Shown: one piece after another, positions 7,033-30,090 of the stretch | Layout: every line of letters begins with the position of its first letter | Numbering within the stretch: position 1 is the stretch's first letter | NCBI GenBank assembly: GCA_919902445.1 | Contig: CAKKQZ010000052.1 | Coordinates: 1 to 54,113, forward strand | Reading direction: 5' to 3' | Length of the DNA stretch: 54,113 nt | Source: Omnitrophica bacterium GWA2_41_15 | Lineage (GTDB): Bacteria; Omnitrophota; Gorgyraeia; Gygaellales; Profunditerraquicolaceae | Position numbers and translations under genes: made by a program | The notes under the pieces: generated by a model | The model's database searches: none | What the model saw: only the letters and a program-made list of their open reading frames with translations | What the model was told of the DNA's origin: nothing

Positions 7033-7106
7033 TGCGCCCAGCAGGAGTTGAACCTGCAACATCCAGTTCCGAAGACTGGCGCTCTATCCAGTTGAGCTAT
7101 GGGCGC
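7033..7106 (-). tRNA. tRNA-Arg (anticodon TCG)
   Basis: Reverse complement GCGCCCATAGCTCAACTGGATAGAGC..., anticodon loop CTTCGGA, T-arm GCAGGTTCAACTCCTGC. CCA is not encoded. Confidence 0.88.
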
Positions 7107-7108
7107 TT

Positions 7109-7828: not shown

Positions 7829-7912
7829 CTAAGCCCTTCCTCCCTAAACTATACGGGCGCCACATAAAGTGACGCCCTTAATCTTTCACTCCGGCATTAA
7901 CTAAAGCGAAGA

Positions 7913-8188
7913 TTATTTTACTTCTACAACACAATTGTGTGTGCCAAAACTATTAACTACGCAGGAATTGCAGCGCGGGTCATTCAGCCAGGTTCCGTCA
8001 ACAAGAAACTTATATTCGTACCTCCCTGGTTTCAGGCTGACCTTTGTCTTCCAGTTGCCTTTTGAATCTCTCTTTGCAGAGAGGTCCTTTGTGTTCCAGT
8101 TATTAAAACTGCCGGTGAGTGTAACTTTTTTTGCCTGCGGAGCAAAAAACTTAAATTCCGTGACTTTTTTGCCAGATAAGTTTACCAT
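7913..8188 (-). CDS. CBM48/AMPK-beta-like glycogen-binding domain protein
   Basis: Motifs GSFNNWN and GRYEYKFLVDGTW. Start moved to MVNLSGKK (ATG 8188), which is preceded by AAGGAGGGGG. The longer ORF (to 8224) runs into a repeat hairpin. Confidence 0.7.
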   Translation of the reverse strand: MVNLSGKKVTEFKFFAPQAKKVTLTGSFNNWNTKDLSAKRDSKGNWKTKVSLKPGRYEYKFLVDGTWLNDPRCNSCVVNSFGTHNCVVEVK

Positions 8189-8198
8189 ATCCCCCTCC

Positions 8199-8347
8199 TT
8201 AATGAACGCATAATTTACGAACACGAAGTGTGAGTAAATTATATGCGCGAATTAATCCCGCATCTTGCTTTCCTAAGGTAACGGCGGGAGAAATTCAAGC
8301 AAAACTTACGCAACATTAGTAAACGTAAGTTATTTGTGCGAATTACG
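8199..8347 (-). repeat. intergenic hairpin cassette (modules A, C, D-like) forming the 5' UTR of the CBM48 gene
   Basis: A: 8199-8253, GCATAATTTAC...GTAAATTATATGC flanked by TTAAT. C: CCCGC...GCGGG, 8254-8297. Third hairpin AAACTTACG...CGTAAGTT, 8299-8344. Confidence 0.8.
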
Positions 8348-8352
8348 TCTTA

Positions 8353-8381
8353 TTTATACACAACAACTTTGACGCTGTCAA
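8353..8381 (-). promoter_or_regulatory. sigma70-like promoter TTGACA-N17-TATAAA (with TG)
   Basis: Minus strand: TTGACA (8381-8376), 17-nt spacer, TATAAA (8358-8353) preceded by GTG. Lies directly upstream of the hairpin cassette. Confidence 0.5.
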
Positions 8382-8389
8382 GAATAAAA

Positions 8390-9193
8390 TTATACTGCGA
8401 CTATCGCAATACCCTTCTTATCTGCCAGCTTAACGCTTTTTTCTTTATCTATAAATAAAGTCTTGCCTGCTTCGATAGCAAGGCACCGGGCATTTGCCTT
8501 AATCAGGCTTCTTACGGTATTTAAACCTACCACGGGTATATCAAAGCGCATATCCTGCTTTGGCTTACTTACCTTGACTATGGTTATGCCTGCGCCACAG
8601 ACCTTTCCAGAACGCTTGATAAGGTTATCCGTCCCTTCCAGTGCCTCAACAGCAACTATTGCTTTATTCTTTACCGCGACTGCCTGGCCTATATCCAGAT
8701 CGGCAATTGCCTTTGCTAAATTCATGCCGAAATGCACATCTTCCCACACATAAAAATCAGGCACGTTTCTTGTAAGCGCGCCTTTCTTAGGCATAAGGCC
8801 TTTAAGGAATATCGTGGAATCTAATAACCGCAGGCCGTATGCTTTTAATTCCTGGGCTATCGCCGTGAATATAGTATCCGCTTTTTTGTCCTTTATGCCG
8901 GAAAGTATCTTTTTTAACTTCGCGTCTTTATCTATCTCTTTGCTAAAAAGGCGGCGAGGGCTTATCTGGCCTGCCATTACTACATTAGTAATGCCTTCCT
9001 TTTTGAATATTTCAAAGATACGGCTGAATTCATCCAGCCTCAGCCAGTAGATTTTATCCACGAAACGCTTTAATACAGGAGAGGTTTCCTTTTTTATGGC
9101 AATAGCCACAATATAATAATCTTTTAGCGAGGCCGCTTGCGAGAAAATGATGGGAAATTTTTTGTTGCCGGCAATTAAGCCGATTTTTTCCAT
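8390..9193 (-). CDS. lpxI: UDP-2,3-diacylglucosamine pyrophosphatase LpxI-like (DUF1009)
   Basis: 267 aa. N-terminal IGLIAGNKKFP. Located in the lpx cluster. Confidence 0.7.
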   Translation of the reverse strand: MEKIGLIAGNKKFPIIFSQAASLKDYYIVAIAIKKETSPVLKRFVDKIYWLRLDEFSRIFEIFKKEGITNVVMAGQISPRRLFSKEIDKDAKLKKILSGIKDKKADTIFTAIAQELKAYGLRLLDSTIFLKGLMPKKGALTRNVPDFYVWEDVHFGMNLAKAIADLDIGQAVAVKNKAIVAVEALEGTDNLIKRSGKVCGAGITIVKVSKPKQDMRFDIPVVGLNTVRSLIKANARCLAIEAGKTLFIDKEKSVKLADKKGIAIVAV

Positions 9194-9205
9194 ATGCTTA
9201 TTCTT

Positions 9206-9282
9206 TAGGGACGTTTCTTAACTTAGCTATAAGGTGTCCCCTACACGGGGACACTTTATAGCTGGCTTGAGAAACGTCCCTA
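9206..9282. repeat. 77-bp palindromic element, TAGGGACG...CGTCCCTA (copy 1)
   Basis: Outer arms TAGGGACGTTTCT/AGAAACGTCCCTA and inner arms GTGTCCCC/GGGGACAC. A second 77-bp copy lies at 30091-30167. Confidence 0.85.
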
Positions 9283-9288
9283 CTTTTA

Positions 9289-10071
9289 CTATTTACGGCA
9301 GGAGTGGGCTATACCGCGTTGCGACTTTTTTATAAAATTGATGAGGTAAGCGATTTCCTGAGTAGGCTCAATCTCTTTCTCAATTTTTTCAAGGGAGTGT
9401 TTTATAGTAAGGCCTTCGTTGAGTAATGCCTTGAAAGCGCGGCCAAGCGAATCTATAGAATCTTTGGAAACTTTTTGCCTCCTTAATCCGACGATATTTA
9501 ATCCGTATACGCGCGCAGGATGGCCATCGCAGGTAGAATACGGAGGAATGTCCTGGGTAACCTTAGAGCATCCTCCGATAATAGAAAGCGTGCCCACCCT
9601 GACAAACTGATGTATGGCAACCAGCCCGCCGACTACAGCTTTGTCTTCGATAGTTACATGGCCCGCAAGCGTGCCGTTGTTGGCAATAACGCAGTTACTG
9701 CCTACAACGCAATCATGCGCAATATGCGAATAGGCCATAAAAAGATTATCGTTTCCGATAACTGTCCTTGAGCCCTCTTCTGTGCCGGGGTTAAATGTGC
9801 AATATTCACGGATTATATTTCCGCTTCCTATATCTAAAAAGACTTTTTCTCCCTTATATTTTAAATCCTGAGTCCGCGACCCAATTACTGCCCCGGTAAA
9901 AATTTCACAGCCGCGCCCTACAGTGGTATTACCCTCTATTAAACAATAGGCGCCGATCTTTGTCTGGCCGCCTATTGCAACAGTGTCACTTATAATAGAG
10001 TAAGGGCCGACTCTGACATCATCGGCCAATTTTGCTTTTTTAGAAACTATTGCTGTCGGGTGAACCTGCAT
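9289..10071 (-). CDS. lpxA: acyl-ACP--UDP-GlcNAc O-acyltransferase
   Basis: 260 aa. Left-handed beta-helix hexapeptide repeats plus a helical C-terminal domain. lpx cluster context. Confidence 0.9.
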   Translation of the reverse strand: MQVHPTAIVSKKAKLADDVRVGPYSIISDTVAIGGQTKIGAYCLIEGNTTVGRGCEIFTGAVIGSRTQDLKYKGEKVFLDIGSGNIIREYCTFNPGTEEGSRTVIGNDNLFMAYSHIAHDCVVGSNCVIANNGTLAGHVTIEDKAVVGGLVAIHQFVRVGTLSIIGGCSKVTQDIPPYSTCDGHPARVYGLNIVGLRRQKVSKDSIDSLGRAFKALLNEGLTIKHSLEKIEKEIEPTQEIAYLINFIKKSQRGIAHSCRK

Positions 10072-10073
10072 AG

Positions 10074-11390
10074 CTAACCTTCTACAAGTGCAAACATCAA
10101 ATCCGCTTCCGCTACCAATTTACCTTCTACAAAGGCCTTACCAAAGACCTGGCCGGTCTTGGATTTTATCCTGCCTGCTTCTACTTCCAAAACTAATTGG
10201 TCCCCGGGAAGGACTGTTCTCCTGAATTTTATATTGTTTGCGGAGAGAAAAAAAGCAAGCTTTCCTCGATTTTCTTCCGGGGCAAGCATCATTACTCCGC
10301 CTACCTGAGCCATTGCTTCGACTATTAAAACCCCGGGCATAACAGGCCTGCCGGGAAAATGCCCCTTAAAAAAATAATCCTCCATTGTCAGGTTCTTGAT
10401 ACCTGTGGCGCGTTTACCCATCTCCAGAGAAACAATTTTATCTATAAACAAGAAGGGGTCGCGGTGCGGGAGTATCTTCTTGATTGCTTCAACATCCAAT
10501 TCCTCTCCGGCAGCAGGATGATATTTTACCCCAATGCCTCCGGCAGAAAACCTCATCTTTTGCTGGCTTAATTTTTTGGCAAGTTTCAAGTTAAGGGAAT
10601 GGCCGCTTCTTAAAGCTATAATATGGCCTTTTAGAGCAGAACCTATAAGATAAAGGTCTCCGATCAAATCCAGCATCTTATGGCGCACAAATTCATTTTC
10701 AAAGCGCAATTTATTTTTTATTACGCCTTTTTTACCTACTACCAGAGTATTTTCATAATTTGCCCCGCGGCCCATGCCATGGCGCTGTAATTCATTCGCC
10801 TCATCTTCAAGGCAGAATGTGCGCGCGGAGGCAATCTCTCTCTTAAACACCTGCGGATTCAAATCCAGTTCCATAAAATCCGTCTTAAGCGCTGAATGAT
10901 TGTAGTTAAGCGTATAAGAAATCCTGAATTCCTCAGATGGCACTGCTATAATTGACGAGCCATCCTCCTCCACAAAGACCGGCTCCCTGATAGAATACTG
11001 CTGCCGTACTTTATCCTGCGCTGCTATGCCTGCTTTCTCGAGAATCTCCAGAAAATTTAAACTGCTCCCATCTAAACCAGGGACTTCGTTATTATCTATT
11101 TCGATATTAATGTTATCTATTGCACGGCCTGCCAAGGCTGCCATAAGGTGTTCTATCGTCTGCACATTAACAGAATCGGTTCCTATGGATGTGCGGCGCG
11201 GGGAAAACTGAGGGGGAAGCAAAGAATCAACGCAGGCTTTTATAACGGGTTTTCCGGGTAAGTCTATACGGATAAAATTAATACCTGAATCTATACCTGC
11301 CGGCTTGAATGTTAAATTAACTTTGTTCGCGGTATGTAAACCGATCCCCTTTAAACTTAATTCTTTTGCAATTGTATTCTGTTTAACCAT
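10074..11390 (-). CDS. lpxC-fabZ: bifunctional LpxC deacetylase / FabZ dehydratase fusion
   Basis: 438 aa. N-terminal LpxC-like region (GIGLHTANKV..., HKMLDLIGDL) and C-terminal FabZ hot-dog (LPHRDPFLFIDKI, GHFPGRPVMPGVL). Confidence 0.9.
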   Translation of the reverse strand: MVKQNTIAKELSLKGIGLHTANKVNLTFKPAGIDSGINFIRIDLPGKPVIKACVDSLLPPQFSPRRTSIGTDSVNVQTIEHLMAALAGRAIDNINIEIDNNEVPGLDGSSLNFLEILEKAGIAAQDKVRQQYSIREPVFVEEDGSSIIAVPSEEFRISYTLNYNHSALKTDFMELDLNPQVFKREIASARTFCLEDEANELQRHGMGRGANYENTLVVGKKGVIKNKLRFENEFVRHKMLDLIGDLYLIGSALKGHIIALRSGHSLNLKLAKKLSQQKMRFSAGGIGVKYHPAAGEELDVEAIKKILPHRDPFLFIDKIVSLEMGKRATGIKNLTMEDYFFKGHFPGRPVMPGVLIVEAMAQVGGVMMLAPEENRGKLAFFLSANNIKFRRTVLPGDQLVLEVEAGRIKSKTGQVFGKAFVEGKLVAEADLMFALVEG

Positions 11391-11461
11391 CGCATTAAAA
11401 TGTCATTGCGAGCAATGACAAAATGATTTGCTAAACCTTGATACATTGACACTAATTTACA

Positions 11462-12487
11462 TTACTTACCTTCTAATTCCTGTATTTTATTCTTAAGTTC
11501 TTTTACCTGCTCATATAACTTCGGAAGATTTTGCACGCATGCATTTATGCGCCTTGCTTTATCATGCTGCCTTGCCGGGTAACCGGATACAATGGTATTA
11601 GGAGGAACCGACTTTGTGACTCCGCCTTGCGCAGCTACTACTGCCCCGTCTCCTATTGTTATGTGCCCGACTATCCCTGCCTGCCCGGCTAAGGTCACGT
11701 TATTTCCTATAATGGTGCTTCCTGAGATTCCTGCCTGCGCTACAATAATAGAGTTCTCGCCAATTACTACATTATGGGCAATCTGGACAAGGTTATCTAT
11801 TTTCGTGCCGCGGCCGATAACTGTTTTATCAAAACGCGCGCGGTCAATAGTTACATTGGCGCCTATCTCTACCTCGTCTCCTATTTCTACTATTCCTATT
11901 TGGGGGATCTTATGATGCAGCCCATTTATCGTAACAAAACCAAAACCATCCGAACCTATCACTGTGCCGCTGTGTATGATTACGCGGCTTCCTATAATTA
12001 CGCGTTCGCGGATAGATACATTCGGGTAAACAAGAGTATCATTTCCTATTTTTGTATGGTGCCCTATAAAACATCCTGAATAAATTATCGACTTATCCCC
12101 TATCGCAACATCATCTTCAATAACCACATAGGGCCCGATAGCGGCACCCTTACCCAGCGATACATTTTTACCTATCAGCGCACTCGGGTGCACCCCTTTA
12201 GGATGCTTAGCCTCATTAGGCGCAGCAAGAGAGATTATCTTAGCGAATGCCAAAGACGGATTCTCCGTGCGGATAGTCGGCTTAGGAACTCTCCCTGCAT
12301 CGCGTGAAGTTATTATTGCGGAGGCGCGTGTAGTATCTATAAGAGAGGAATACTTCGGATTTGCCAGAAAAGTAATGTCTCCTTCGGCTGCCTCTTTTAT
12401 CCCCGCAACTCCGGTAATGACTGTGCTCCCATCGCCGACAACCTCCCCTTCTATAAAATCTGCTATTTCCTTAAGGGTCTTGCGCAT
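11462..12487 (-). CDS. lpxD: UDP-3-O-acylglucosamine N-acyltransferase
   Basis: Hexapeptide-repeat protein with the LpxD N-terminal domain. Start uncertain: MRKTLKE at 12487, or 12499 per the ORF track. No clear SD. Confidence 0.88.
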   Translation of the reverse strand: MRKTLKEIADFIEGEVVGDGSTVITGVAGIKEAAEGDITFLANPKYSSLIDTTRASAIITSRDAGRVPKPTIRTENPSLAFAKIISLAAPNEAKHPKGVHPSALIGKNVSLGKGAAIGPYVVIEDDVAIGDKSIIYSGCFIGHHTKIGNDTLVYPNVSIRERVIIGSRVIIHSGTVIGSDGFGFVTINGLHHKIPQIGIVEIGDEVEIGANVTIDRARFDKTVIGRGTKIDNLVQIAHNVVIGENSIIVAQAGISGSTIIGNNVTLAGQAGIVGHITIGDGAVVAAQGGVTKSVPPNTIVSGYPARQHDKARRINACVQNLPKLYEQVKELKNKIQELEGK

Positions 12488-12488
12488 A

Positions 12489-12639
12489 TTAATGAACACT
12501 TGACTTACGAATACGCTTAGTATGAGTAAGTCAATGTGTGAATTAATCCCCCCTGCATTCTTGCAGAATGCAAGAAGGGGGGATAAGTTCGGCCAGATAA
12601 CTTATGTAGGCTAAAAGCCTCCATAAGTTATGGCCTCAC
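12489..12639 (-). repeat. stop-to-start hairpin cassette (modules D-C-A) between skp and lpxD
   Basis: A 12489-12544 (ACACTTGACTTAC...GTAAGTCAATGTGT), C 12545-12585 (CCCCCC...GGGGGG), D 12586-12639 (GGCCAGATAACTTATG...CATAAGTTATGGCC). Abuts the skp stop codon. Confidence 0.85.
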
Positions 12640-13161
12640 TTATTTCTTATAACCTTTGTTTAGCAAATCCACTATTCTTTCGGTTATATCAAGTTTTTTA
12701 TCCTGATAAACCAGCACCCTGTCGTTGAAAACAAGGGTGTACCCTTCTTTTTCAGAGTATTTATTCACTGTCTCTTCTACGTCTTTAAATATCTCTCTCG
12801 TCTTCTCATCATTCTCTTTACGCAGGTCAGCCTGTTTCTGCCTGTCATTTTCCTGAAAGGTTTTTACTTTTGCTTCCAGGTCAGGCCTTTTTGCTTCCTT
12901 TTCCTTGTCGCTTAATAAATTTACCTTGTCCTGAAAGGCCTTGATATCGCTTACCTTCTTTTCTTTTTCCGCGATATAGGCACTTTCTTTTTCGGTCAAT
13001 ACCTTTTCATACTCCTTAGCTTTATTATATTCGGCGAATATGCGGCTTAAATTAACATATGCGAACTTTCCCTCTGCGGCCGCCTGCCCTGCAAGGCACA
13101 TTAAAACAAAAGCTCCCAAAAAAACTCCTGCCACCTTTCTCATCTTGTTTCCCCTCCTCAA
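12640..13161 (-). CDS. skp: OmpH/Skp periplasmic chaperone
   Basis: 173 aa. Signal peptide followed by a Lys/Glu-rich coiled coil. Positioned between bamA and lpxD. Confidence 0.8.
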   Translation of the reverse strand: MRRGNKMRKVAGVFLGAFVLMCLAGQAAAEGKFAYVNLSRIFAEYNKAKEYEKVLTEKESAYIAEKEKKVSDIKAFQDKVNLLSDKEKEAKRPDLEAKVKTFQENDRQKQADLRKENDEKTREIFKDVEETVNKYSEKEGYTLVFNDRVLVYQDKKLDITERIVDLLNKGYKK

Positions 13162-13300
13162 TTTCCCTCTTTTTCTACCCGGAAATTGATCCCGAGCGAA
13201 ACGAGGGATTAAACTTTCTACCAGTAAATTAATCCCGTTAGAAATTTTGCGTTTGAATTTTTTGTCAATCCGGTATTTCTAATGGGATAAATTCAGCCAT

Positions 13301-13390
13301 CAAACTTACGTTCACTTCCCGCTAATTATGTAATATCGGGCGGGACCCCGCCGTTAACCTAAGTTAGGGTAGCGGGGGTTCCGTAAGTTT
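13301..13390 (+). repeat. ACTTACG hairpin with a CGGGACCCCG double hairpin nested in its loop (inverted orientation)
   Basis: CAAACTTACG-TTCAC-[TTCCCGC...GGGCGGGACCCCGCC...AGCGGGGG]-TTC-CGTAAGTTTG on the plus strand, opposite to the other module-A copies. Confidence 0.75.
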
Positions 13391-13399
13391 GGGCTTCAT

Positions 13400-15847
13400 T
13401 TAGAATCCATGGCTTGCGCTGAAGTGGAATCTTCCGCTGTTTTTATCATCTTCGCCAGGGGCTTTATTTAAGGGTATGCCGTAATCAAGCATTATCGGGC
13501 CGATGGGGGTTTTAAGCCGAAGCCCCAAACCAATACCTGATTTAAAACCGCCTGTTTCCTTAACACCGTTTGCGTCTTCCGACGAACCGAGATCGCCTAA
13601 CTTTGACCACACATTTCCTACGTCATAAAATGCAGCCACTTTAAGAAAGTTGAATAAAGGATACGTATACTCGATATTGCCGATAGCCATAGAATTTCCG
13701 CCTAACGGGTCCTTTGACGCGGGGTCAATAGGGCCTAATGACCTTTCCTCGTAACCTCTTACCGAGGAAGCGCCGCCTGCAAAGAATCTTTCGTATATCG
13801 GTATACGCTCGGTATTTGCGTAGGCAGCGGCTAAACCTACCCTCCCCCTTATCTCCAGGACAGAATTTAAAGGCATTGGGAAATAATGCGAAGCGCGGCC
13901 GAAAAATTTCCAGAAATCCTTATCCCCTGCTAACGGCCCGCCGGCCCATTGGACTGAACCATTAAAGTAATCGCCTTTTCTTGGGTCAAAGACATTATCG
14001 CGGCTGTCAAAGGTAAGGCCGGGAGAAATACTGCTGACTGTATTCTTCCCAACTTCCTGCTTTAAGTCATTTGTGGCATTATCAGTTATGTTAGAGATAT
14101 CAATCTCTTCAATCTTGTACATCAAATCAGACCTTAAATATTCGCTTATTTCTTTGCCCAGGCGAAGGTCCCCCCCGGTAATTTTTTCATCATAACCGTA
14201 ACCAACATCGGAATCCCTTTTACGCTCGCGCCTGTAGGCGTCAAAACCAAAAGATACAGGATAATCAAAAATCCAGGGCTCTGTAAAACTTAAATCAAAG
14301 CCGCTGCTGACAGTTCCGAATGAAGCGCGGAATTTCAAATTTTGCCCGCCTCCGGTAAAATAAGGAAAATTCTTCCAATCAAAATTCTTCTGCTCTACCT
14401 CTACAAACCCTACGAACTGGTCAACCGTACTGTAACCTCCGCCAAAGCTAAAAGACCCGGTCTTTGTTTCCTTCACCTCAACTATCAAATCTTTTTTATC
14501 AGGCAGATTTGTATCCTCGGTATCGTAACTGACCTCTTCAAAGAACCCTAAGTTCTGCAGCCTCTCCTTGCTGCGGCGAAGTTTTTCTCCGTCAAATTTT
14601 TCTCCGGGACGAATCCTTAATTCACGGCGTATAATCACGTCTTTGGTCTTTACGTTCCCCCTTATCTTAACCTTAGCCACATAAGCAACTTCATTTTCAG
14701 TAATGTTGTAGGCGATATCCACGCGCCCGGTCTGCGAGTTAACAGAAGTTGTATCCTGAATTTGGGCAGATATGTATCCTTTATCAAAATACAGGCCATG
14801 GATACTGGCGGCATCGCTCTTTAGCGCTTCATCGCTGAAAACCTTACCCGGGATACACTCTTTAAGCGTAGCCAGTATCTCCTTCTCAGGAATTTCCTTA
14901 TTACCTTGTATAGTTACATTGCCGGCCAGATATTTTTTACCCTCCTGTATCTTTATGTAGATGTATAAAGAATAGGTTTTTTTGGCATCCGGCTTGACTT
15001 CATAATTAACCACTGCGTCGGTAAAGCCGCCTCTGGTGTAGAAAGACTTTATACGCTCAATATCCTCCTTTAATACCTCATCCTTCAGGACCCCTGCGTT
15101 AAAAATCCATGCGCGTTTTGTCTTCAGTAATTTTAGGATGCGTTTTTTTGGAAACGCCTTATTCCCTTCTACAGCTATATCTTTAATCCTTACCTTCTTG
15201 CCCTCCAGGGCACTAAATTCTACTTTTGCTTTATTAGTTTCTTTGTTTAGGTCGGCCTTGTAAGTTATCTGCGCTTGGCTAAAGCCCATTTTTTCATATA
15301 ACTTCTCAAGCGTGCGCACATCTTCGGTTAAATTCGGATAATCCAGATACTGCGTTTCTTTGGATTTAAGCATCCCTTTTAGTTTCTCATCCTTCATGGT
15401 AATGCGGTACATTCCGGAAAAACCAATCTTTTCTATGATGGGCCTTTCTACAACCGTGAGGATGATTTTTACGCCGTCTTTGTAATTTTGCGTATCTATT
15501 TTTATGTCGCTAAAATACCCCAGAAGGTAAAGCCGCTTTAAATCATCGCTAACAACATTCTCCTGATAAGGGCTGCCTATGCGGGTCTTCATCTTCGAAA
15601 CAATAGTATTGGTGCTTATGTTCTTATTCCCCTTTACATCTATTCCGGTAACTAATTTTAAGCCTTCGGGTGTTTGCGCTTCGATGGATTCCTGCGATTT
15701 TACTTCGGAGGCAACAGGGGAAGATTCGTCTGGTGGGGATTGCGCGAATACGCTTATACTGCTCCCTAATATTAAAAAAATTGAGAAAAACGTGGAAATT
15801 TTCTTACGCATTGTTGTTATTATATATGAATTGCCCGAGGTAAGCAA
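13400..15847 (-). CDS. bamA: outer-membrane protein assembly factor BamA
   Basis: 815 aa. Signal peptide, POTRA repeats, C-terminal beta-barrel ending ...SASHGF. Start is either TTG at 15847 (AGGAG 8 nt upstream) or ATG at 15811. Confidence 0.92.
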   Translation of the reverse strand: MLTSGNSYIITTMRKKISTFFSIFLILGSSISVFAQSPPDESSPVASEVKSQESIEAQTPEGLKLVTGIDVKGNKNISTNTIVSKMKTRIGSPYQENVVSDDLKRLYLLGYFSDIKIDTQNYKDGVKIILTVVERPIIEKIGFSGMYRITMKDEKLKGMLKSKETQYLDYPNLTEDVRTLEKLYEKMGFSQAQITYKADLNKETNKAKVEFSALEGKKVRIKDIAVEGNKAFPKKRILKLLKTKRAWIFNAGVLKDEVLKEDIERIKSFYTRGGFTDAVVNYEVKPDAKKTYSLYIYIKIQEGKKYLAGNVTIQGNKEIPEKEILATLKECIPGKVFSDEALKSDAASIHGLYFDKGYISAQIQDTTSVNSQTGRVDIAYNITENEVAYVAKVKIRGNVKTKDVIIRRELRIRPGEKFDGEKLRRSKERLQNLGFFEEVSYDTEDTNLPDKKDLIVEVKETKTGSFSFGGGYSTVDQFVGFVEVEQKNFDWKNFPYFTGGGQNLKFRASFGTVSSGFDLSFTEPWIFDYPVSFGFDAYRRERKRDSDVGYGYDEKITGGDLRLGKEISEYLRSDLMYKIEEIDISNITDNATNDLKQEVGKNTVSSISPGLTFDSRDNVFDPRKGDYFNGSVQWAGGPLAGDKDFWKFFGRASHYFPMPLNSVLEIRGRVGLAAAYANTERIPIYERFFAGGASSVRGYEERSLGPIDPASKDPLGGNSMAIGNIEYTYPLFNFLKVAAFYDVGNVWSKLGDLGSSEDANGVKETGGFKSGIGLGLRLKTPIGPIMLDYGIPLNKAPGEDDKNSGRFHFSASHGF

Positions 15848-15858
15848 GAAAAAAACTC

Positions 15859-16220
15859 CTATTCAATGCGGGCGATGTTTTCAAATCTTGTATATTCTTT
15901 GATAAATGAGCGCATAACTTATGGAACGATAGTGAACATAAGTTATTACGCGAATTAATCCTTGACACGTAAGGTTCAAATCTTAATGTCATCGAATTCG
16001 TGTCAAGCATAACCTTGTTACTCAATGCGGGCGATGTTTTCAAACCTTGTATATTCTTTGATAAATGAGCGCATAACTTATGGAATGATAGTAAACATAA
16101 GTTATTGCGCGAATTTTGAGCACACAAAGTTTCTATTAGCGAAATCCCGCGTAAGCGGGGACCCTTGACACGTAAGATTCAAATCTTAATGTCGTCGAAT
16201 TCGTGTCAAGCATAACCTTG
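15859..16220 (-). repeat. two tandem units, each a 52-bp copy of the dnaB 3' end plus hairpin modules
   Basis: dnaB tail copies at 15859-15910 and 16018-16069 match 16221-16272 at 51/52 and 50/52. Interleaved modules: A (15911-15956, 16070-16114), B (16116-16160), E (15962-16017, 16164-16220). Confidence 0.9.
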
Positions 16221-17588
16221 CTACTCAATGCGGGCGATGTTTTCAAATCTTGTATATTCTTTGATAAATGAGAGTTTCAAGGCGCCTACCGGCCCGTTAC
16301 GTTGTTTGGCAATAATAACTTCCGCCACCCCCTGATTGTCGGGCGTCGGATTATAATACTCTTCCCTTAATATCAAGACAACTACATCCGCATCCTGCTC
16401 TATTGCGCCGGATTCCCTTAAATCCGATAGCTGCGGCCGATGGTCTGTGCGCGATTCTACCGCGCGGGATAACTGGCTTATTGCTATCACCGGAATACTT
16501 AATTCGCGCGCAAGCGCCTTGAGTGAGCGCGAAATCTCAGAGATCTCCTGCTGCCTGTTCTCTGTATTATTACTTGAGCCGCTCATTAACTGCATGTAAT
16601 CCAGTATAATCAGTTTTATATCCTGGTGCGCTTTAAGGCGCCTGGCTTTAGCGCGTAATTGCATTACCGTTATACCTGCTGAATCGTCGATAAATATGGG
16701 GGCTTCGGAAAGTTTTCCCGCTGCCGCAGTAAGGCGCGGCCAGTCAGAAACAGCAAGGTAGCCCGTCCTGACCTTATGGGCGTCAACCCTGGCATGAGAA
16801 CAAAGCATCCTCTGAACAAGCTGCTCCTTGGCCATCTCTAAACTAAAAATCGCTAAGGGCACCTTTTCTATTACTCCGGCGTATTCTGCTATTCCCAGCG
16901 CAAAAGCGCTTTTGCCCATTGAGGGCCTTCCGGCAACAACCACAAGGTCCGAATTCTGCAGCCCGGCTGTCTTTATATCAAAATCAATATAGCCCGTCGG
17001 AATACCGGTAACATGCGCCTTCTTCTGATAAAGCCTGTCTATGGACTCAATACTATCCTTAACAATTTCTTTCAGGTGCAAGGTTGTGCCTGAACTTTTT
17101 CTATCGCTAACTTCAAATATAAATTTTTCGGCGCTATCAACCACCTCGTTGACATTGCCTTCACTTTCATAACATAAAGAAACAATCCGCGTGGCATTAT
17201 TTATCAGGGTCCTTAAGATACTTTTTTCCTTGACGATGCTTGAGTAGTGGCTGATATTTGCCGCTGTAGGAACAGAGTTTGCAAGCGCTGTTAAAAAACT
17301 TGGCCCCCCAACTTCCTCCAGCGTCTCCTCTTTTTTTAGCGCATCCGTCAAAGTGATCAGGTCAACCGGCTTATTGGCGCTGTAAAGGCTTATGATTGCC
17401 TCAAATATTTTACGGTGGCTGTCTTTGTAAAAAGAATCCCTGTCCAGCATTTCACTGGCAACTGAAATAGCATCTTCATCGAGCAGCATGGAACCTAATA
17501 CCGCCATTTCAGCTTCCAGGTTTTGCGGAGGAATTTTGTCTAATGATACTGAGCCGAGCATATTTTGCATTATTTCTTTACAATCCAA
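16221..17588 (-). CDS. dnaB: replicative DNA helicase
   Basis: 455 aa. Walker A GRPSMGKSAF and DnaB N- and C-terminal domains. Confidence 0.95.
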   Translation of the reverse strand: MDCKEIMQNMLGSVSLDKIPPQNLEAEMAVLGSMLLDEDAISVASEMLDRDSFYKDSHRKIFEAIISLYSANKPVDLITLTDALKKEETLEEVGGPSFLTALANSVPTAANISHYSSIVKEKSILRTLINNATRIVSLCYESEGNVNEVVDSAEKFIFEVSDRKSSGTTLHLKEIVKDSIESIDRLYQKKAHVTGIPTGYIDFDIKTAGLQNSDLVVVAGRPSMGKSAFALGIAEYAGVIEKVPLAIFSLEMAKEQLVQRMLCSHARVDAHKVRTGYLAVSDWPRLTAAAGKLSEAPIFIDDSAGITVMQLRAKARRLKAHQDIKLIILDYMQLMSGSSNNTENRQQEISEISRSLKALARELSIPVIAISQLSRAVESRTDHRPQLSDLRESGAIEQDADVVVLILREEYYNPTPDNQGVAEVIIAKQRNGPVGALKLSFIKEYTRFENIARIE

Positions 17589-18013
17589 ACCTTAATTTTG
17601 GCAAGGACTTCCGGGTGCAGCCTTACCGGTACCTCGTAAATCCCTAAAGCCTTAATCGGTTCATCCAGCATAATGGAATTCTTATTTATCTCAAAGCCCT
17701 CTTCTTTTAATGCCGCTGCCAGATCAATAACGCCTATACTTCCGTATAGCTTATCTTCTTCCTGCGTAAGCGCTTGGAGAGTTAAAGAGATGCCCTCTAA
17801 TCTCTCCTTTTGCTCCTCTGCCTCATCTTGAATTTTTTCCTGCTGGAGATTCTTTTTAATCTTTTCCTGCTCCAGCCGTTTTAAATTTTCAGGAGTCAAA
17901 GGAATAGCGAGTTTATTAGGTATAAGAAAATTACGGGCAAACCCATCTTTCACCTTTACAACTGCCCCGGCTTTCCCTATCCTATCCACATCTTTATTTA
18001 ATATGACTTCCAT
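17570..18013 (-). CDS. rplI: 50S ribosomal protein L9
   Basis: 147 aa. MEVILNKDVDRIGKAGAVVKVKDGFARNFLIP. Confidence 0.93.
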   Translation of the reverse strand: MEVILNKDVDRIGKAGAVVKVKDGFARNFLIPNKLAIPLTPENLKRLEQEKIKKNLQQEKIQDEAEEQKERLEGISLTLQALTQEEDKLYGSIGVIDLAAALKEEGFEINKNSIMLDEPIKALGIYEVPVRLHPEVLAKIKVWIVKK

Positions 18014-18023
18014 AATACACCTC

Positions 18024-18228
18024 TTAATGAGCCCACAACTTACGGAACGTCAGTGAACGTAAGTTGTTTGGGCGAATTATTGAGCACCTAAAGTTTCTAT
18101 TAGCGAAATCCCGCGTAAGCGGGGATCCCCACATCTTGTTTCCAAGCAAACAGCGGGATAAGTTCGGACAGATAAGTTATGTCGTTTAGATTTCTTATTA
18201 TATAGTTCTCCATAACTTATGTCCTTAC
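18024..18228 (-). repeat. full stop-to-start hairpin cassette (modules D-C-B-A) between rpsR and rplI
   Basis: A 18024-18078, B 18080-18124, C 18126-18158, D 18159-18228. It fills the whole spacer between the rpsR stop codon and the rplI SD. Confidence 0.85.
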
Positions 18229-18525
18229 TTAACGCGTATAAGGAATAAGTGAAAGGAACCTTGCCTTTTTTATTGCCTCGGCAATACGCCTCTCGTGTTT
18301 GGCGCAATTTCCTGAGATACGGCTTGAAACAATCTTTCCGCGCTCGGTAATAAAGGCCTCAAGCCTTTTTACATCCTTATAATCGATAGACTTCACCTTA
18401 TCCTCCGCGCAGAAACGGCAGAATCTTTTTCTGGCAGGCAGATGATCGCGCTTCTTAATAATTATCTTACCTCTGGCACCGGCTTTAGTGCCCGCTTTAG
18501 TAAATGTTTTTGTCTTAACTTTCAT
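18229..18525 (-). CDS. rpsR: 30S ribosomal protein S18
   Basis: 98 aa. [30 protein letters not shown] signature. Confidence 0.92.
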
Positions 18526-18958
18526 TTGCTTCTTCCTCGCTTTCTCCTAACCATGTGTTTTCGCTGGATTGCTCCACTTGCCCGGATAATTCAACTGCAG
18601 GTTCTGCTGCCTGCGGCTTAACCTCGCCGGCCTTGCCTAAAAACTGCACGCGTTCAGCCCTTACTTCGATAACGCTTTTTTTCTGTCCGGCATTATCCTC
18701 CCAGGAACGCGACTGCAATCTTCCCTCCACAAAAAGTGGGCTTCCTTTATGCAAATACTGGTTACAGGTTTCTGCCTGTTTATTCCACACTACCGCGGTA
18801 ATAAAACAAACCTCTTCTTTTAGTTCGCCGTTTTTATTTTTAAACCTGCGGTTTACTGCAAGGCGCAGATTAGCCACTGCCACTCCTTGCGGGGTATAAC
18901 GCAGTTCCGGGTCTTTGGTTAAATTACCCATAAGATAAACTCTATTGAAACTTGCCAT
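18515..18958 (-). CDS. ssb: single-stranded DNA-binding protein
   Basis: 147 aa. OB-fold N-terminus ([21 protein letters not shown]) and an acidic C-terminal tail. Confidence 0.9.
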
Positions 18959-19009
18959 GTCAAACCTCCTCTTGGCTTATTTCGCGAGCAAGCCGCATCT
19001 AGCATGGTA

Positions 19010-19062
19010 GGGACAGTCCCCTTTGTTTTTTCAAAAATTTGCACTCTGACGGGGACAGTCCC
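19010..19062. repeat. pair of GGGACAGTCCC palindromes
   Basis: AGGGACAGTCCCC (19009-19021) and GGGGACAGTCCCT (19051-19063) in the rpsF-ssb spacer. Confidence 0.85.
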
Positions 19063-19095
19063 TACTGCAGTGTTCATGCCGCTTCCTTTCCTTCT

Positions 19096-19383
19096 TTACT
19101 CTAGTTTTGTAAAAAGGGATCTTAATATATTTTCATTGAGGCTGTAGGTGCGCGTTACCTCTTTTAATAAAAGCGGGGGAAGAGAAAACTGTAAAAGATA
19201 ATATACGCCTTCCTGATGCTTCTTTATAGGAAAATATAATTTCCTTTTTTCCGACCAGATAGCGCCGCTGGAAACCTGGCCTTGATTTTTAGTTACTGTC
19301 TCTCCTATCTGGCTGAAAAGTGTTTTCTTCTCATCCTCAGACAGGTCCGGCCTAATGATAAACATCGCTTCGTACTTATTCAC
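19096..19383 (-). CDS. rpsF: 30S ribosomal protein S6
   Basis: 95 aa. MNKYEAMFIIRPDLSEDE start. Confidence 0.9.
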   Translation of the reverse strand: MNKYEAMFIIRPDLSEDEKKTLFSQIGETVTKNQGQVSSGAIWSEKRKLYFPIKKHQEGVYYLLQFSLPPLLLKEVTRTYSLNENILRSLFTKLE

Positions 19384-19405
19384 GCCTGCCCTTCCTTTCT
19401 TAAAT

Positions 19406-19990
19406 TTAGCCCCGGCCCTTTTTTGAAGGGCGGTTGTAAATATTCATTGCCCCTGTTGTGCCTTTTGTTGCCCAGGACTCGCAACAACCTAGTGCTTTTT
19501 CTATTGTTTCCTTGACTCGGGTTTTTTCCTTTTTTGAAAACTCAGACAAAACGTAATCAGCTGTTTCCATATCTTTATTGGGCCTGCCGATCCCAACGCG
19601 CAAACGCGCAAATCCTTCACATTTTAGCGAATCTATTATAGACTGGATGCCCCTATGGCCAGCCGATGAGCCGGAAGGCCGTAATTTTAACCTTCCGAAT
19701 TCCAGGTCCAGGTCATCGCAAATAACCAATAAACTCTCTATGCCTACCTTGTATTTTTTGAGAACCCGGCTTACCGCTGTGCCGGATAGGTTCATAAAGG
19801 TAAGCGGCAATGCCAGGGCTATATTTCTCCCTGCTATTCTTACTCTAGCGCTTAAGGAAGAAATTCCGAAATCTTTTTTTAAAGCGGCTTTATATTCTCT
19901 GGCTAACGCCTTTACAACCGTAAAGCCTATATTATGCCTTGAATGAGCGTAAACATCACCCGGGTTACCCAGTCCGACGATTAATTTCAT
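19406..19990 (-). CDS. pth: peptidyl-tRNA hydrolase
   Basis: 194 aa. LIVGLGNPG and HNIGF motifs. Confidence 0.93.
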   Translation of the reverse strand: MKLIVGLGNPGDVYAHSRHNIGFTVVKALAREYKAALKKDFGISSLSARVRIAGRNIALALPLTFMNLSGTAVSRVLKKYKVGIESLLVICDDLDLEFGRLKLRPSGSSAGHRGIQSIIDSLKCEGFARLRVGIGRPNKDMETADYVLSEFSKKEKTRVKETIEKALGCCESWATKGTTGAMNIYNRPSKKGRG

Positions 19991-20026
19991 TTAAGCTCTA
20001 AGCTTTAAGCTTACGGCTTACAGCTT

Positions 20027-20740
20027 TTATTTTCCTTTCTCTTTCTCCTTGCCTTCCTTTTTCCCCTCTTCTTGCGCGCCTTCTTCAGCAGGGGCTTCCT
20101 TCTTTTCCTTGATTACCTCAGGCTCTTGCGGCACTTCTCCTTCCAGAGGCGCAGCAACAACCTCTTCTTTCATAGGAGCTGCTACGGATAGTATAATCGA
20201 GGTCTGGTCATTTAAAATCTTAACCCCTTCGGGAACAATTAAATCCTTTACGTGAACAGAATCCCCTATTTTCATTTGGGCAACATCCACTTCGAACTCT
20301 TTAGGGATATTAGTAGGCAGGCACTCTACTTCAACCTCCCAGAGTATATGTTCCAATGCGCCGCCTTCCTGCTTTACTCCCGCAGGCTCTCCCTTTGCCA
20401 CCACAGGCACATTAACTTTAATCGCCTTAGTCAGGGATATCTGGTTAAAATCAACGTGTTTTATGTCCCCGTGAACCGGATCATATTGAACCTCTTTGAT
20501 TAGGCAGGGGCGGGATTTAAATTTCTTATCATCCTTAATCTTAATGTTGATTATAACGCCCTCTATCCTGTGCTGCTGGTGCACAAGCCTGATGAGCGCG
20601 CTGTTTGAAACCTTCAAGGCCTGCGATTCTCTTCCGTCGGCATAAATTACCGCGGGGATAAAACCTTTATCCCTTAAATCTTTAACCTTGCCTCTTCCCT
20701 TTTCTTCCCTTAGCTCTGCTTCTAAAAATATCTCATCCAT
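20027..20740 (-). CDS. rplY: 50S ribosomal protein L25 (Ctc form)
   Basis: 237 aa. L25/Ctc N- and C-terminal domains plus a Lys/Glu-rich tail. Confidence 0.88.
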   Translation of the reverse strand: MDEIFLEAELREEKGRGKVKDLRDKGFIPAVIYADGRESQALKVSNSALIRLVHQQHRIEGVIINIKIKDDKKFKSRPCLIKEVQYDPVHGDIKHVDFNQISLTKAIKVNVPVVAKGEPAGVKQEGGALEHILWEVEVECLPTNIPKEFEVDVAQMKIGDSVHVKDLIVPEGVKILNDQTSIILSVAAPMKEEVVAAPLEGEVPQEPEVIKEKKEAPAEEGAQEEGKKEGKEKEKGK

Positions 20741-20839
20741 AATAATAAAACTCTCCTTAATGAGCCCACAACTTACGGAACGTTAGTTGTTTGGGCGAAT
20801 TAATCCCAATAACAATCTAATCGGTATTTCTAACTTAGG

Positions 20840-21778
20840 CTAGTCAAACAGGGAGCTAACTGACTCTTCATTGTGTATCCTCTTGATCGCCTCGCCTAAA
20901 AGATCCGCGACCGACAATACCTTAATACGTGGATGCCTTTTATGGCTATTCAAAGGAATACTATCTGAAATAACCAGTTCCTTAAGCTCCTTACATTTAT
21001 CAAGCCGCTCTATCGCAGGGCCTGATAAAACTCCGTGCGCAATTGCCGCATAAATATTTTTTGCCCCTCCCCTTTTTAAGAACCCTACTCCTTCGAAAAG
21101 CGAACTTCCGGTGGCAATCAAGTCGTCTACAATTATCGCATTCTTGCCCTTAACTTCTCCTAATATGTGCACTGCCTCGGTTTTCTCGGGAGAATCGCGC
21201 CTTTTATCGATAATAGCGAGGCCCGCTTCGAATCTTTTTGCGTAAGCGCGCGCCATTTTGATCCCGCCGACATCGGGGGAAACAATTACTAAATCCTTGA
21301 TTTTTAATTTTTTAAAGTATTCCGTAAAAACACCCACTGAAAAAAGATGGTCCACGGGTATATCAAAAAAACCCTGGATCTGCCCGGCATGTAAATCCAT
21401 AGTCAAAACCCTGTTCGCGCCGGCTGTAGTAATAAGGTTTGCCACTAACTTTGCGGCAATAGGAACGCGCGGCTGATCCTTTCTATCCTGGCGGGCGTAA
21501 CCAAAATAAGGCATCACGGCGGTTATGCGCTGGGCTGATGACCTTCTTAAGGCATCGCACATAATCAAAAGCTCCATAAGATTTTCATTCGGGGGAGGGC
21601 AGGTCGGCTGAATTATGAATACGTCTTTGCCGCGCACATTCTCATTGATTTTTACCCGTATCTCACCCTCGCTGAACCTTGCCACAAAGGCATCTGATAA
21701 TTTAGCCTTCAGGTACTTACAAATATTCTTAGCTAAGCCCGGATGCGCATTCCCGCTAAAAATCGCTAATTTATCCAC
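20840..21778 (-). CDS. prs: ribose-phosphate pyrophosphokinase
   Basis: 312 aa. DLHAGQIQGFF and IIVDDLIATGSS. GTG start. Confidence 0.95.
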   Translation of the reverse strand: MDKLAIFSGNAHPGLAKNICKYLKAKLSDAFVARFSEGEIRVKINENVRGKDVFIIQPTCPPPNENLMELLIMCDALRRSSAQRITAVMPYFGYARQDRKDQPRVPIAAKLVANLITTAGANRVLTMDLHAGQIQGFFDIPVDHLFSVGVFTEYFKKLKIKDLVIVSPDVGGIKMARAYAKRFEAGLAIIDKRRDSPEKTEAVHILGEVKGKNAIIVDDLIATGSSLFEGVGFLKRGGAKNIYAAIAHGVLSGPAIERLDKCKELKELVISDSIPLNSHKRHPRIKVLSVADLLGEAIKRIHNEESVSSLFD

Positions 21779-24058: not shown

Positions 24059-24092
24059 AAATTTATAAGCTGTGGCGTCCATACCCACCATT

Positions 24093-24159
24093 GTCCCGCT
24101 GAATCCATTCCTTATCGCCAGCGGGATCCCGCTGGCACTAATTATACGCTGCAGCGGGA
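24093..24159. repeat. CGGGATCCCG double-hairpin element upstream of tRNA-Gln
   Basis: GTCCCGCTG ... CCAGCGGGATCCCGCTGG ... CAGCGGGA. Same three-part architecture as 34820-34880, 50613-50685, 13316-13378 and 52143-52185. Confidence 0.8.
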
Positions 24160-24183
24160 GACGACATCCCAAAAATTTGGACA

Positions 24184-24604: not shown

Positions 24605-25522
24605 TTAAACCGTCCTTGCGACAAAAACCCGCCAGGATTTCTCCTGCTTTTTAATTTCCCTGCTGACTCTAACGGCCTCCTTTCTGGAAGAAACAATACC
24701 GAACACTGCCGGACCGCTTCCGGACATCAAGATTGATTTAACGCCAAGGCCAGCGAGCCCCTCTTTAATCCTCCTAACTTGCGGATACTCACTTGCTGTA
24801 ACCTCTTCAAGGCTGTTATATAAAAGCAGGGGGATTAACGAAAAGGCTTTTTTTCTTAATGCCGAAAATATTATATTAACATCATATGCAGGGGTTGTCA
24901 ACCCAGAAAATTCCTGCCTGCCCTGCCTTGCCGGCAGGCGGGCGGCAGGGAGGGCATCCCACTTTTTATAAATCAGGGGGGTAGAGGCCTTTATTTTAGG
25001 GACAACCAGTATATGCCAAAGCCGTAAATCTTTAAGCCCTTCAAGGGGCGTAATTCTATCCCCGCGGTTTGAGCCTTTAGCAAAAGATGTATTATAAATA
25101 AAAAATGGAACATCGCAACCTACTTCCTTAGATAAAGTTACAAGCCTGCTTAAAGAAAGATTCACTTTCCAAAGCCTGTTTAAACCCAAAAACACGCTCC
25201 CTGCATTACTTGAGCCGCCTCCTAACCCTGCGCCGATAGGAATACTTTTTAGTATCTTTATATCCGCTCCCTTTTGAACTTTATACTTTTCTTGCAATAA
25301 CTTTGCGCCTTTGTAACAGAAATTAGTTTCATCTCTAGGAAGATCCGGATTAGCGCAAGATATCCTGATTAATTTATCGCGGCGCAGCTTCAGGGTTATA
25401 GTATCGTAAAGGTTTATTCTCTCAAAGAGGGTTTCGATATTGTGGTAATTATCAGGGCGTTTATTGAGGATTTGCAGGAAAAGATTTAACTTAGCGAAGG
25501 ATTTGACAATTAGGGTATTCAC
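24605..25522 (-). CDS. ispE: 4-diphosphocytidyl-2-C-methyl-D-erythritol kinase
   Basis: 305 aa. GHMP kinase motif [13 protein letters not shown] and N-terminal AKLNLFL. Confidence 0.9.
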
Positions 25523-28407: not shown

Positions 28408-28480
28408 GTTGCGGGACAGTCACTCCTTACAAGGGACTGTCCCCGAAGGGGACTGTCCCTTGACAGTCCCTGGCCGCAAC
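28408..28480 (-). repeat. composite long hairpin built from four GGGACWGTC units downstream of hisG
   Basis: Outer stem GTTGCGG/CCGCAAC encloses GGGACAGTCAC, AGGGACTGTCCCC-gaa-GGGGACTGTCCCT and TGACAGTCCC. On the sense strand the apex is a UUCG loop. Confidence 0.8.
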
Positions 28481-29380: not shown

Positions 29381-29567
29381 TTAATGAGCCCACAACTTAC
29401 GGAACGACAGTGAACGTAAGTTGTTTGGGCGAATTATTGAGCACATAAAGTTTCTATTAGCGAAATCCCGCGTAAGCGGGGCTCCCGCATCTTGTTTTCC
29501 AAGGAAACAGCGGGAGAGGTTCAACCGCATAACTTATGGAGCGTAAACATAAGTTATCGGCACGGAC
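29381..29567 (-). repeat. hairpin cassette (modules D-C-B-A) forming the hisG 5' UTR
   Basis: A 29381-29435, B 29437-29481, C 29482-29518, D 29519-29567. Confidence 0.85.
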
Positions 29568-29571
29568 ATTA

Positions 29572-29600
29572 ATTATAACGGTATATTAATATTTTGTAAA
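29572..29600 (-). promoter_or_regulatory. sigma70-like promoter TTTACA-N17-TATAAT
   Basis: Minus strand: TTTACA (29600-29595), 17-nt spacer, TATAAT (29577-29572). Lies immediately upstream of the cassette. Confidence 0.55.
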
Positions 29601-30076: not shown

Positions 30077-30090
30077 CGCTTCCCCCTTTT

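Follow-up and report, generated by a model that had tools for sequence, protein, structure and literature searches.

Mosaic palindromic repeats between stop and start codons of Omnitrophota genes: a probable BOX/REP/MITE-like family

In integrons, attC sites are recognised in single-stranded, folded form, in which a terminal stem is combined with an unpaired spacer, extrahelical bases and a variable terminal loop, and the RNase III hairpins between the early and late cistrons of phage T7 are cleaved so that a 3' hairpin is left upstream and a short leader downstream. BOX repeats are modular, co-transcribed operon adducts that contribute the stop codon of 36 genes (PMC3049150). REP and REPIN sequences occur in hundreds of copies between co-directional genes, with inverted doublets as the likely replicating unit and with sequence populations within genomes (PMC3116915, PMC5581495). 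The Correia elements of Neisseria, which are transposable elements of the miniature inverted-repeat kind (MITEs), have terminal inverted repeats, TA flanks, co-transcribed hairpins that can be cleaved by RNase III or stabilise the mRNA, and insertion polymorphism between strains (PMC2649163). Here, we analysed a 54,113-nucleotide (nt) contig of Omnitrophica bacterium GWA2_41_15 (CAKKQZ010000052.1; this whole stretch is called the window), in which a preliminary description had noticed cassettes of ordered hairpin modules, named D, C, B and A, that fill spacers such as the one between rpsR and rplI from the stop codon to the Shine-Dalgarno (SD) sequence and start codon.

We propose, with a probability of roughly 0.6, that these modules belong to a BOX/REP/MITE-like family of non-autonomous palindromic repeats, which would be co-transcribed with their host genes and tolerated only at stop/start boundaries. 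The proposal draws on the mosaic anatomy of the units, their spread, their polarity and position, their insertion polymorphism, their copying within genomes and the covariation of their stems, each of which was observed. The family is previously undescribed, and a literature search found no paper on interspersed repeats in Omnitrophota; the kind of element is already known.

The minus strand carries nearly all genes of the window, and the GC skew of the plus strand is negative throughout. Pfam confirmed the names rpsR, rplI, skp, lpxD, hisG, lpxI, nfu, prs, rplY, archease and rtcB as well as that of the CBM48 gene, and with them every gene name given earlier. The listed spacers were all read on the minus strand, and the modules were then mapped to the exact coordinates below, where L125 denotes the closest relative among the comparison loci (all numbered with an L).

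18159-18231, minus strand: module D of the rpsR-rplI spacer, with terminal stem TAAGT/ACTTA, GA/GA internal loop, outer stem GGAC/GTCC and core stem ATAAGTTATG/CATAACTTAT
18229-18231, minus strand: stop codon TAA of rpsR, the first three bases of module D
18126-18158, minus strand: module C of the rpsR-rplI spacer, a GC-rich hairpin TCCCGC..N..GTGGGGA
18080-18125, minus strand: module B of the rpsR-rplI spacer, a small hairpin CCCGC-TTAC-GCGGG with a tail like a collapsed module A (..GTGCTCAA)
18024-18079, minus strand: module A of the rpsR-rplI spacer, with terminal stem, TC/TC internal loop, outer stem GCCC/GGGC, A bulge and core stem CAACTTACG/CGTAAGTTG, ending in ..GGGCTCATTAA
18014-18023, minus strand: SD sequence GAGGTG and spacer before the rplI ATG (18013), host sequence outside the repeat that is also present in the cassette-free L125
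12489-12642, minus strand: skp-lpxD cassette, with D at 12584-12642 (including the skp stop TAA), a C variant at 12547-12583 and A at 12489-12546
29381-29571, minus strand: cassette upstream of hisG, with a D-like unit at 29516-29571, C at 29483-29515, B at 29437-29482 and A at 29381-29436; the ATG lies 2 nt past A
8199-8345, minus strand: lpxI-CBM48 cassette, with an A/D hybrid at 8290-8345, C at 8256-8289 and A at 8199-8255, followed by GGAGGGGGAT and ATG
44243-44341, minus strand: cassette upstream of nfu, with C at 44300-44341 and A at 44243-44299
20757-20828, minus strand: prs-rplY spacer, with a 25-nt leader piece and a short-loop module A (20757-20803)
4942-5050, minus strand: archease-rtcB spacer, with D at 4996-5050 (the stop TAG spans the junction), then a hairpin at 4942-4995
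13233-13402, minus strand: bamA-skp spacer, with D starting at the bamA stop TAA (13288-13402), its loop enclosing nested CCCGC hairpins, and a C-like hairpin at 13233-13287
15848-16218, minus strand: dnaB-bamA spacer, a tandem duplication of hairpin, B, A and the last ~50 nt of dnaB, with A units at 15903-15958 and 16062-16115

The modules described earlier are thus real and beyond chance: the core hairpin AACTTAYG-N5-30-CRTAAGTT was found 7 times in the window against 0.00 expected, and CCCGC..GCGGG hairpins 16 times against 1.5 expected. Ten core hairpins were counted across the 54-kb window, where the units are, like REP and REPIN sequences, short extragenic imperfect palindromes at high copy number that form inverted doublets. 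A repeat search regrouped the modules as families, with 97% identity between the B-A blocks 18024-18129 and 29381-29486 at unlinked loci and 94% identity among the three copies of module B. The earlier list of instances was right but short, since it lacked the cassettes at 13233-13402 and 15848-16218. Read as its reverse complement, the hairpin at 4942-4995 corresponds to a module found repeatedly upstream of A in other species. In the dnaB-bamA spacer, the open reading frame (ORF) 15804-16127 is spurious and lies within repeat spacer; the coding end of dnaB contains CTCATTTA, identical to the end of module A, and microhomology at this sequence may have driven the duplication.

Module A follows the consensus TAA-(A)TTC-GCNC-bulge-YAACTTAYG-loop-CRTAAGTTR-T-GNGC-TCAT(T)-TAA, in which the terminal stem TWAAT/ATTWA has 5 bp, the N of the outer stem GCNC/GNGC pairs as A-T, G-C or C-G, the 5' arm carries a bulge of 1-3 nt and the core stem reads YAACTTAYG/CRTAAGTTR. 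The TC/TC internal loop was present in 134 of 149 A units, and the terminal loop measures 11-56 nt, with a nested hairpin in some units. With a loop of such varying length no reading frame is kept, and a small ORF inside A that could serve coupling was dismissed. Module D (TAA-GTGA-GGNC-...-GNCC-GAAC-TTA) mirrors this plan with TAAGT/ACTTA, a GA/GA loop, GGNC/GNCC and a bulge on the 3' arm. Indeed, the left-arm pattern of A matches D on the opposite strand, the reverse complement of the D left arm, CATAACTTATGKCCTCACTTA, was found by a loose pattern for the A right arm, CRTAAGTTATGNGCTCATTWA, and the predicted fold of D has the same helix plan as A. Because D mirrors A, we read the cassette as two related palindromic units in inverted orientation that enclose variable GC hairpins (C and B). 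The existence of module D had been recognised before; the consensus then given was a plus-strand reading, and the unit starts with the stop codon itself rather than after it. TAA or TTA separates neighbouring hairpins, TA or TAA stands at both flanks of every unit, and the general traits of MITEs are present, namely terminal inverted repeats, small size, absence of an ORF and many copies.

The stems covary. In an alignment of 103 A copies, pre-filtered for pairing so that the figures are somewhat inflated, 96.5% of cells were paired, 11 of 19 pairs varied on both sides and 170 cells were compensatory, values that were reached in none of 500 shuffles. Among 1872 stem pairs, 97.8% were Watson-Crick, and the transition mismatches were divided evenly between G·U (21) and A·C (20), a comparison of low power with only 41 events. 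Folding was equally strong on the sense and antisense strands (z = -3.5 and -3.9). We therefore rejected both a wobble-asymmetry signature of RNA and a strand preference in folding; with G·U about equal to A·C and both strands folding alike, the stems bear no mark of a sense RNA as the selected molecule. Their symmetry points to the DNA level (terminal inverted repeats or DNA hairpins) rather than to an RNA signature. In Rfam searches of the window only tRNAs reached the gathering score, and a search at E ≤ 10 gave nothing relevant; for the cassette, the best sub-threshold match was RsmY, with 13 bits against the 57 needed.

How widely are these units distributed, and where do they lie? A scan of one genome per species with the 3' arm of A (21 positions, 19 of them specified) yielded at least 119 stretches with an exact match. 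They belong to at least 85 species-representative genomes, almost all labelled Candidatus Omnitrophota, whose sources are groundwater, lakes, deep mines, marine sediment and single cells. Metagenome contigs from Hainich groundwater encode the RplI protein of the window. The viral contigs of IMG/VR contained no match to the A arm, and we set them aside as carriers.

The position of the units is narrowly defined. A long sense-strand ORF starts within 30 nt downstream of 131 of 179 A units; in a stricter set, a sense start lies within this distance in 104 of 145 (72%) and an antisense start at the other end in only 6 of 145 (4%), with a background of 22% for start-codon proximity at random positions. 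The distances from A to the start codon are bimodal, either 0-3 nt without an SD sequence (e.g. CTCATTAA-ATG) or 7-18 nt with an SD sequence that begins 0-1 nt past the unit. An SD sequence is missing altogether from more than half of the A units that abut a start codon, and in the window the lpxD ATG lies 1 nt after module A in this way. Downstream of the units lie housekeeping genes of varied kinds (infA, gap, glmS, hisH, tpiA, groEL, ribosomal-protein genes, secY and others). At the other end of the cassette, a search for D that did not require a stop codon recovered 32 units, of which 30 have TAA as first triplet; in 25 of the 32 the first triplet closes, in frame, an ORF of at least 60 codons. 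Modules follow the order D-C-(B)-A repeatedly, both within the window and among other species, and the arrangement of ordered hairpins from stop codon to SD or start that had been reported for the window holds in 145-179 A units, ~190 loci and many species.

At L013, a plus-strand block includes a gene of 625 amino acids on the opposite strand, and an A unit of its own, in sense orientation, stands at the ATG of this gene; L057 is alike. Based on these loci, the only two of the kind that were found, polarity tracks the gene and not the replication strand, contrary to the tie between orientation and replication strand that marks IS200/IS605-type elements. Immediately 3' of module A, L008 and L011, which are two different species, have the non-coding sequence AATTGAGCTACAGGCGCATAT in common, and L059 and L123 have AGTCCAGATG.. 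in common; such sequences may be conserved non-coding RNAs or promoters.

Comparison of related loci revealed gain and loss. Among 80 metagenome loci that encode RplI relatives at 50-88% identity, the rpsR-rplI junction is mostly compact and empty (0-30 nt, often TAA..ATG or overlapping TAATG), and a minority of junctions with D-C-A or A is scattered patchily inside clusters of close RplI relatives. Seven of the eight filled sites have just 0-2 nt before the ATG, against 0-30 nt at empty sites. L125, the closest relative, shares 90.5% DNA identity with the window over 12 kb. It has no A or D hairpins, against five in the window, and it keeps the SD sequences (GGAGAG, GAGGTG) and start codons at the shared junctions prs-rplY, rpsR-rplI and dnaB-bamA. 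At prs-rplY, 72 nt are cleanly inserted in the window, precisely at the 5' edge of the SD sequence GGAGAG, which the empty site has as well; at rpsR-rplI, L125 lacks D, C and A and retains GAGGTG-N-ATG, and its 25-nt spacer, considered as a possible remnant of module B, matches that module at 13 of 23 positions, in AT-rich sequence; at dnaB-bamA, the window has 370 extra nt. The absence of the units from this sister lineage indicates that the cassette is dispensable for expression of rplY, rplI and bamA. Likewise, L130/131 have a 189-nt cassette where L132 (93% identity) has an empty TAATG junction, and L131 and L155 differ as filled and empty at rplI-dnaB.

The units are also copied. C-A composites are genome-specific, and copies within a genome are near-identical. 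The A unit upstream of nfu (44243-44300) agrees in all 58 nt (100% identity) with a unit in L030, a metagenome-assembled genome of another species, with different downstream genes, while the flanking genes of the window and L030 do not align at ≥85%; it is also 97% identical to units in L007 and L093, each upstream of a different gene.

We suggest that small palindromic insertion units, common to many Omnitrophota species, make up the cassette as a composite. These units are copied within genomes and are gained and lost between close relatives. They would survive only where they are harmless, i.e. in the few bases between a TAA stop and the next SD sequence or start codon in compact co-directional operons. 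On this account, D begins on the stop codon and A ends on the SD sequence or ATG because only the harmless bases of the spacer are tolerated, and the composite of D and A would come to fill the whole spacer. Judging by their position, the units would be transcribed with the operon and fold into local hairpins. We speculate that they are mobilised in trans by an enzyme that recognises the conserved bulged hairpin, that TA(A) is the target, and that any consequences for the RNA, such as protection by 3' and 5' hairpins, processing at UWA linkers or a stop-start proximity that favours re-initiation, would be by-products or later co-option.

Three roles had been offered for the cassette in the preliminary description. 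Selfish DNA tolerated only at this position fits best, in view of the empty sites of L125, the patchy presence among RplI relatives and the homogenised copies. A portable translation-initiation cassette finds no support, given that the SD sequence pre-exists in the empty site and that SD sequences are so often missing where A abuts a start codon; the earlier statement that the SD sequence is contiguous with module A holds as to the abutment, and the SD sequence, which the cassette-free L125 has too, is not part of the element. A possible role in RNA processing or stability is favoured by the strict sense orientation and not by the parity of G·U and A·C or by the equal folding of both strands.

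Several observations speak against the insertion-unit reading. The arms are exactly conserved across the phylum, and REP, MITE and BOX families are usually specific to a species or genus, so that arms shared phylum-wide are unusual for such elements. The strict gene-relative polarity at L013 and L057 makes selection alone an incomplete account, and the spacing of 0-2 nt at 7 of 8 filled rpsR-rplI sites is tighter than an insertion anywhere harmless would imply. No clean target duplication was found in the filled/empty pairs of the window with L125, L130 with L132 and L131 with L155; a candidate duplication of TAA, TTAAG or TA (at rpsR-rplI, CG[TTAAG]...[TTAAG]AGGTG) was set aside, as these pairs do not rebuild it, and the terminal TWA triplets covary as an inverted pair and not as a direct repeat. 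A phmmer search with E. coli RayT gave no match at E ≤ 10 among 4842 ORF segments from ~1.3 Mb of loci, which are genome fragments, and clustering of 1416 ORFs from motif-selected loci gave no recurring transposase-like family beside the units. As candidates for a mobilising enzyme, a partner of the RAYT type, the single-copy Y1 HUH transposase of REP systems whose gene REPs usually flank, was dropped for want of a relative of the E. coli protein in the loci, over-represented neighbour proteins proved to be housekeeping families only (ribosomal proteins, SecY, PyrB, TpiA etc.), and the two ORFs at 5613-7032 encode ordinary lipoproteins.

Could the hairpins instead serve the host as RNA? They would then be intercistronic punctuation read by a conserved Omnitrophota protein or by an RNase III-like or RNase E-like RNase, with cleavage at the UWA linkers or the TC/TC loop that would turn D into a 3' stabiliser and A into a 5' cap before the SD sequence or AUG; alternatively, the folded cassette would hold stop and start close together and couple termination to re-initiation. 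Such a function would suit the abutment of A on SD or start with its strict orientation (104/145 against 6/145), which goes with the gene even where, within the 8-kb locus L013, that gene lies on the other strand, the stop codon inside D, a conservation across at least 85 species that exceeds that of the flanking genes, the conserved asymmetric bulge and TC/TC loop (134/149 units) and the many A units that abut essential genes without an SD sequence. However, L125 does without units before rplY, rplI and bamA at 90.5% identity, and most relatives have empty rpsR-rplI junctions; G·U pairs are in no excess over A·C (21 vs 20), the antisense folds as well as the sense strand, no Rfam family matches, and the genome-specific homogenised copies indicate copy-and-paste rather than vertical conservation. 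We consider a host-functional RNA unlikely, though a serious contender. A more far-reaching and rather doubtful form would be a cistron punctuation used by the host throughout the phylum, in which a conserved protein or RNase reads the bulged TC/TC hairpin and cuts the UWA linkers, and the A hairpin or the folded cassette enables SD-less initiation, while the units still spread as mobile DNA, i.e. a domesticated self-propagating expression module.

At the DNA level, the bulged hairpins could form on folded single-stranded or cruciform DNA and act as a host site for recombination or chromosome organisation, with a tyrosine recombinase (cf. integron attC), a Y1 HUH enzyme, gyrase or a nucleoid protein (cf. 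REP) as candidate partners. We regard this as improbable. The units do have an attC-like plan, in which a terminal stem, an unpaired internal loop and a stem that carries extrahelical bases lead to a terminal loop that varies from 11 to 56 nt, their complementarity is near-perfect and symmetric on both strands, and the core ATAACTT..AAGTTAT may resemble recombinase-site arms such as those of loxP. But their flanks are syntenic housekeeping genes (rpsF-ssb-rpsR-rplI-dnaB) and not mobile cassettes, the attC motifs RYYYAAC/GTTRRRY are unmatched (the A arm reads GTTRTGN), no recombinase gene was seen beside the units in the motif-selected loci, and DNA organisation does not predict sense-oriented abutment on start codons. 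Chance similarity or an artefact of metagenome assembly is next to inconceivable. The contigs L004 and L005 from the same population begin within the cassette, 34 nt before the start of rplI, which indicates that assemblers break at these repeats; the artefact is nevertheless refuted by the same cassette in independent assemblies of that population (L001-L003), and it is further opposed by units in more than 85 genomes from unrelated studies, single-cell genomes included, and by a motif expected 0 times by chance in the window.

Three sites with the look of promoters, identified by consensus match, lie just upstream of cassettes, and their sequences read as they had been described:

8353-8381, minus strand: promoter-like TTGACA-17-TATAAA upstream of the lpxI-CBM48 cassette, consensus match only
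29572-29600, minus strand: promoter-like TTTACA-17-TATAAT directly upstream of the hisG cassette, consensus match only
44344-44372, minus strand: promoter-like TTGCCT-17-TATAAT (with TG) upstream of the nfu cassette, consensus match only

From these consensus matches alone, the cassette may form the whole 5' untranslated region at the three loci. A scan of 4900-21000, which covers only the site at 8353-8381, gave no enrichment of promoter-like sites as a class. A further promoter-like sequence, AGGACA-17-TATAAT, lies at 18197-18225 in the left arm and loop of the rpsR-rplI module D, and AT-rich TATA-like loops recur in the orthologous D units of L126 and L130. A promoter within module A or a leaderless start was set aside, as positions -12 to -7 of the abutting ATG read TGCGCT, without a -10 box by eye.

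Other repeats are present alongside the family. A 42-nt GC-rich palindrome, GCCCTCCCTGCCGCCCGCCTGCCGGCAAGGCAGGGCAGGCAG, lies in frame in the coding region of ispE (24913-24955, ORF 24605-25522, minus strand) and is absent from L125; its motif CCTGCCTGCC..GGCAGGCAGG is nested in module-A loops of L052, L099, L105 and L162. At 6353-6410 of L125 (corresponding to window 19588, the pth ORF), a 57-nt hairpin CCCGCACCAATTGC..GCAATTGGTGCGGG is in frame in pth and flanked by the 9-nt direct repeat GGCAGGCCC, the only insertion seen with a clear target duplication. A second repeat family consists of 84-nt hairpins TAGGGACGTTTCT...AGAAACGTCCCTA at 9204-9287 and 30089-30172, 80% identical to each other, and occurs in another species at the rpsR-rplI junction of L155. 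A third, with AGGGACTGTCCCC-loop-GGGGACAGTCCCT hairpins downstream of genes (28432-28460, 54028-54056, ~19000-19045 and ~2200), may represent terminators or another repeat. Twin hairpins linked by the palindrome GCGGGATCCCGC were found at 24095-24158, 34822-34879 and 13318-13376, and the copy at 24065-24164 is absent from L125. Between two lipoprotein genes, a gene-free stretch of 397 nt (6075-6471) contains the direct repeat AGCTATATAAGAAAAAG twice and GC-rich hairpins and has no Rfam match. Finally, rtcB (2239-4929) is split by an intein with a LAGLIDADG domain, with Pfam RtcB in two pieces together with Intein_splicing and LAGLIDADG_3.

For Omnitrophota, an uncultivated phylum, gene expression is barely explored. 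The repeat family offers a sequence marker for this phylum and explains assembly breaks as well as spurious ORFs in spacers (15804-16127; wrong GTG starts for hisG, lpxD and the CBM48 gene). That 58 nt are identical between species with more than 15% divergence in their genes, and that the arms are exact in at least 85 species, implies either a very conserved recognising enzyme or a host function, and either would be new. It also poses a puzzle of translation, namely how coupling persists across an insert of 150-200 nt between genes that are essential, SD-less and translationally coupled.

Compared with the described systems, the T7 RNase III hairpins would be a functional analogy only, with similar repeated hairpins and an internal loop, in sites that are neither mobile nor polymorphic. 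Integron attC sites likewise follow each gene's stop codon immediately, in arrays of co-directional genes, and have a helix plan analogous to that of A and D, whereas the Omnitrophota units do not match their core motifs, lie between syntenic core genes in 80 relatives and were seen without an integrase. The Correia elements share the terminal inverted repeats, TA at both flanks and insertion polymorphism, but they are single units of 100-155 bp with a proven TA duplication and outward promoters, in contrast to a chain of separate hairpins with strict polarity and no clean duplication seen. REP, BIME and REPIN sequences of Enterobacteria and Pseudomonas are also short imperfect palindromes in alternating orientation that form mosaics with other motifs, and the overall layout of the cassette resembles that of the Y and Z REP units in BIMEs. 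Unlike these, the Omnitrophota units have no GTAG head (the 103 aligned A units start TWAATTCGC and D starts TAAGTGAGG) and measure ~55 nt instead of 20-40 nt, while REPs differ between species and lie mostly at 3' ends, not against start codons. BOX (boxA-boxB(n)-boxC) of Streptococcus pneumoniae, the nearest in kind of these systems and probably unrelated in sequence, is likewise an ordered mosaic with optional or repeated inner modules and complementary outer modules, which has no coding capacity, lies between genes in operons, is co-transcribed as a 5' or 3' operon adduct and supplies the upstream stop codon (PMC3049150). BOX is, however, confined to mitis-group streptococci, whereas the Omnitrophota units extend over at least 85 species with exact 21-nt arms, and the outer modules are here bulged hairpins in their own right, with a downstream end that in 72% of A units abuts an SD sequence or start codon.

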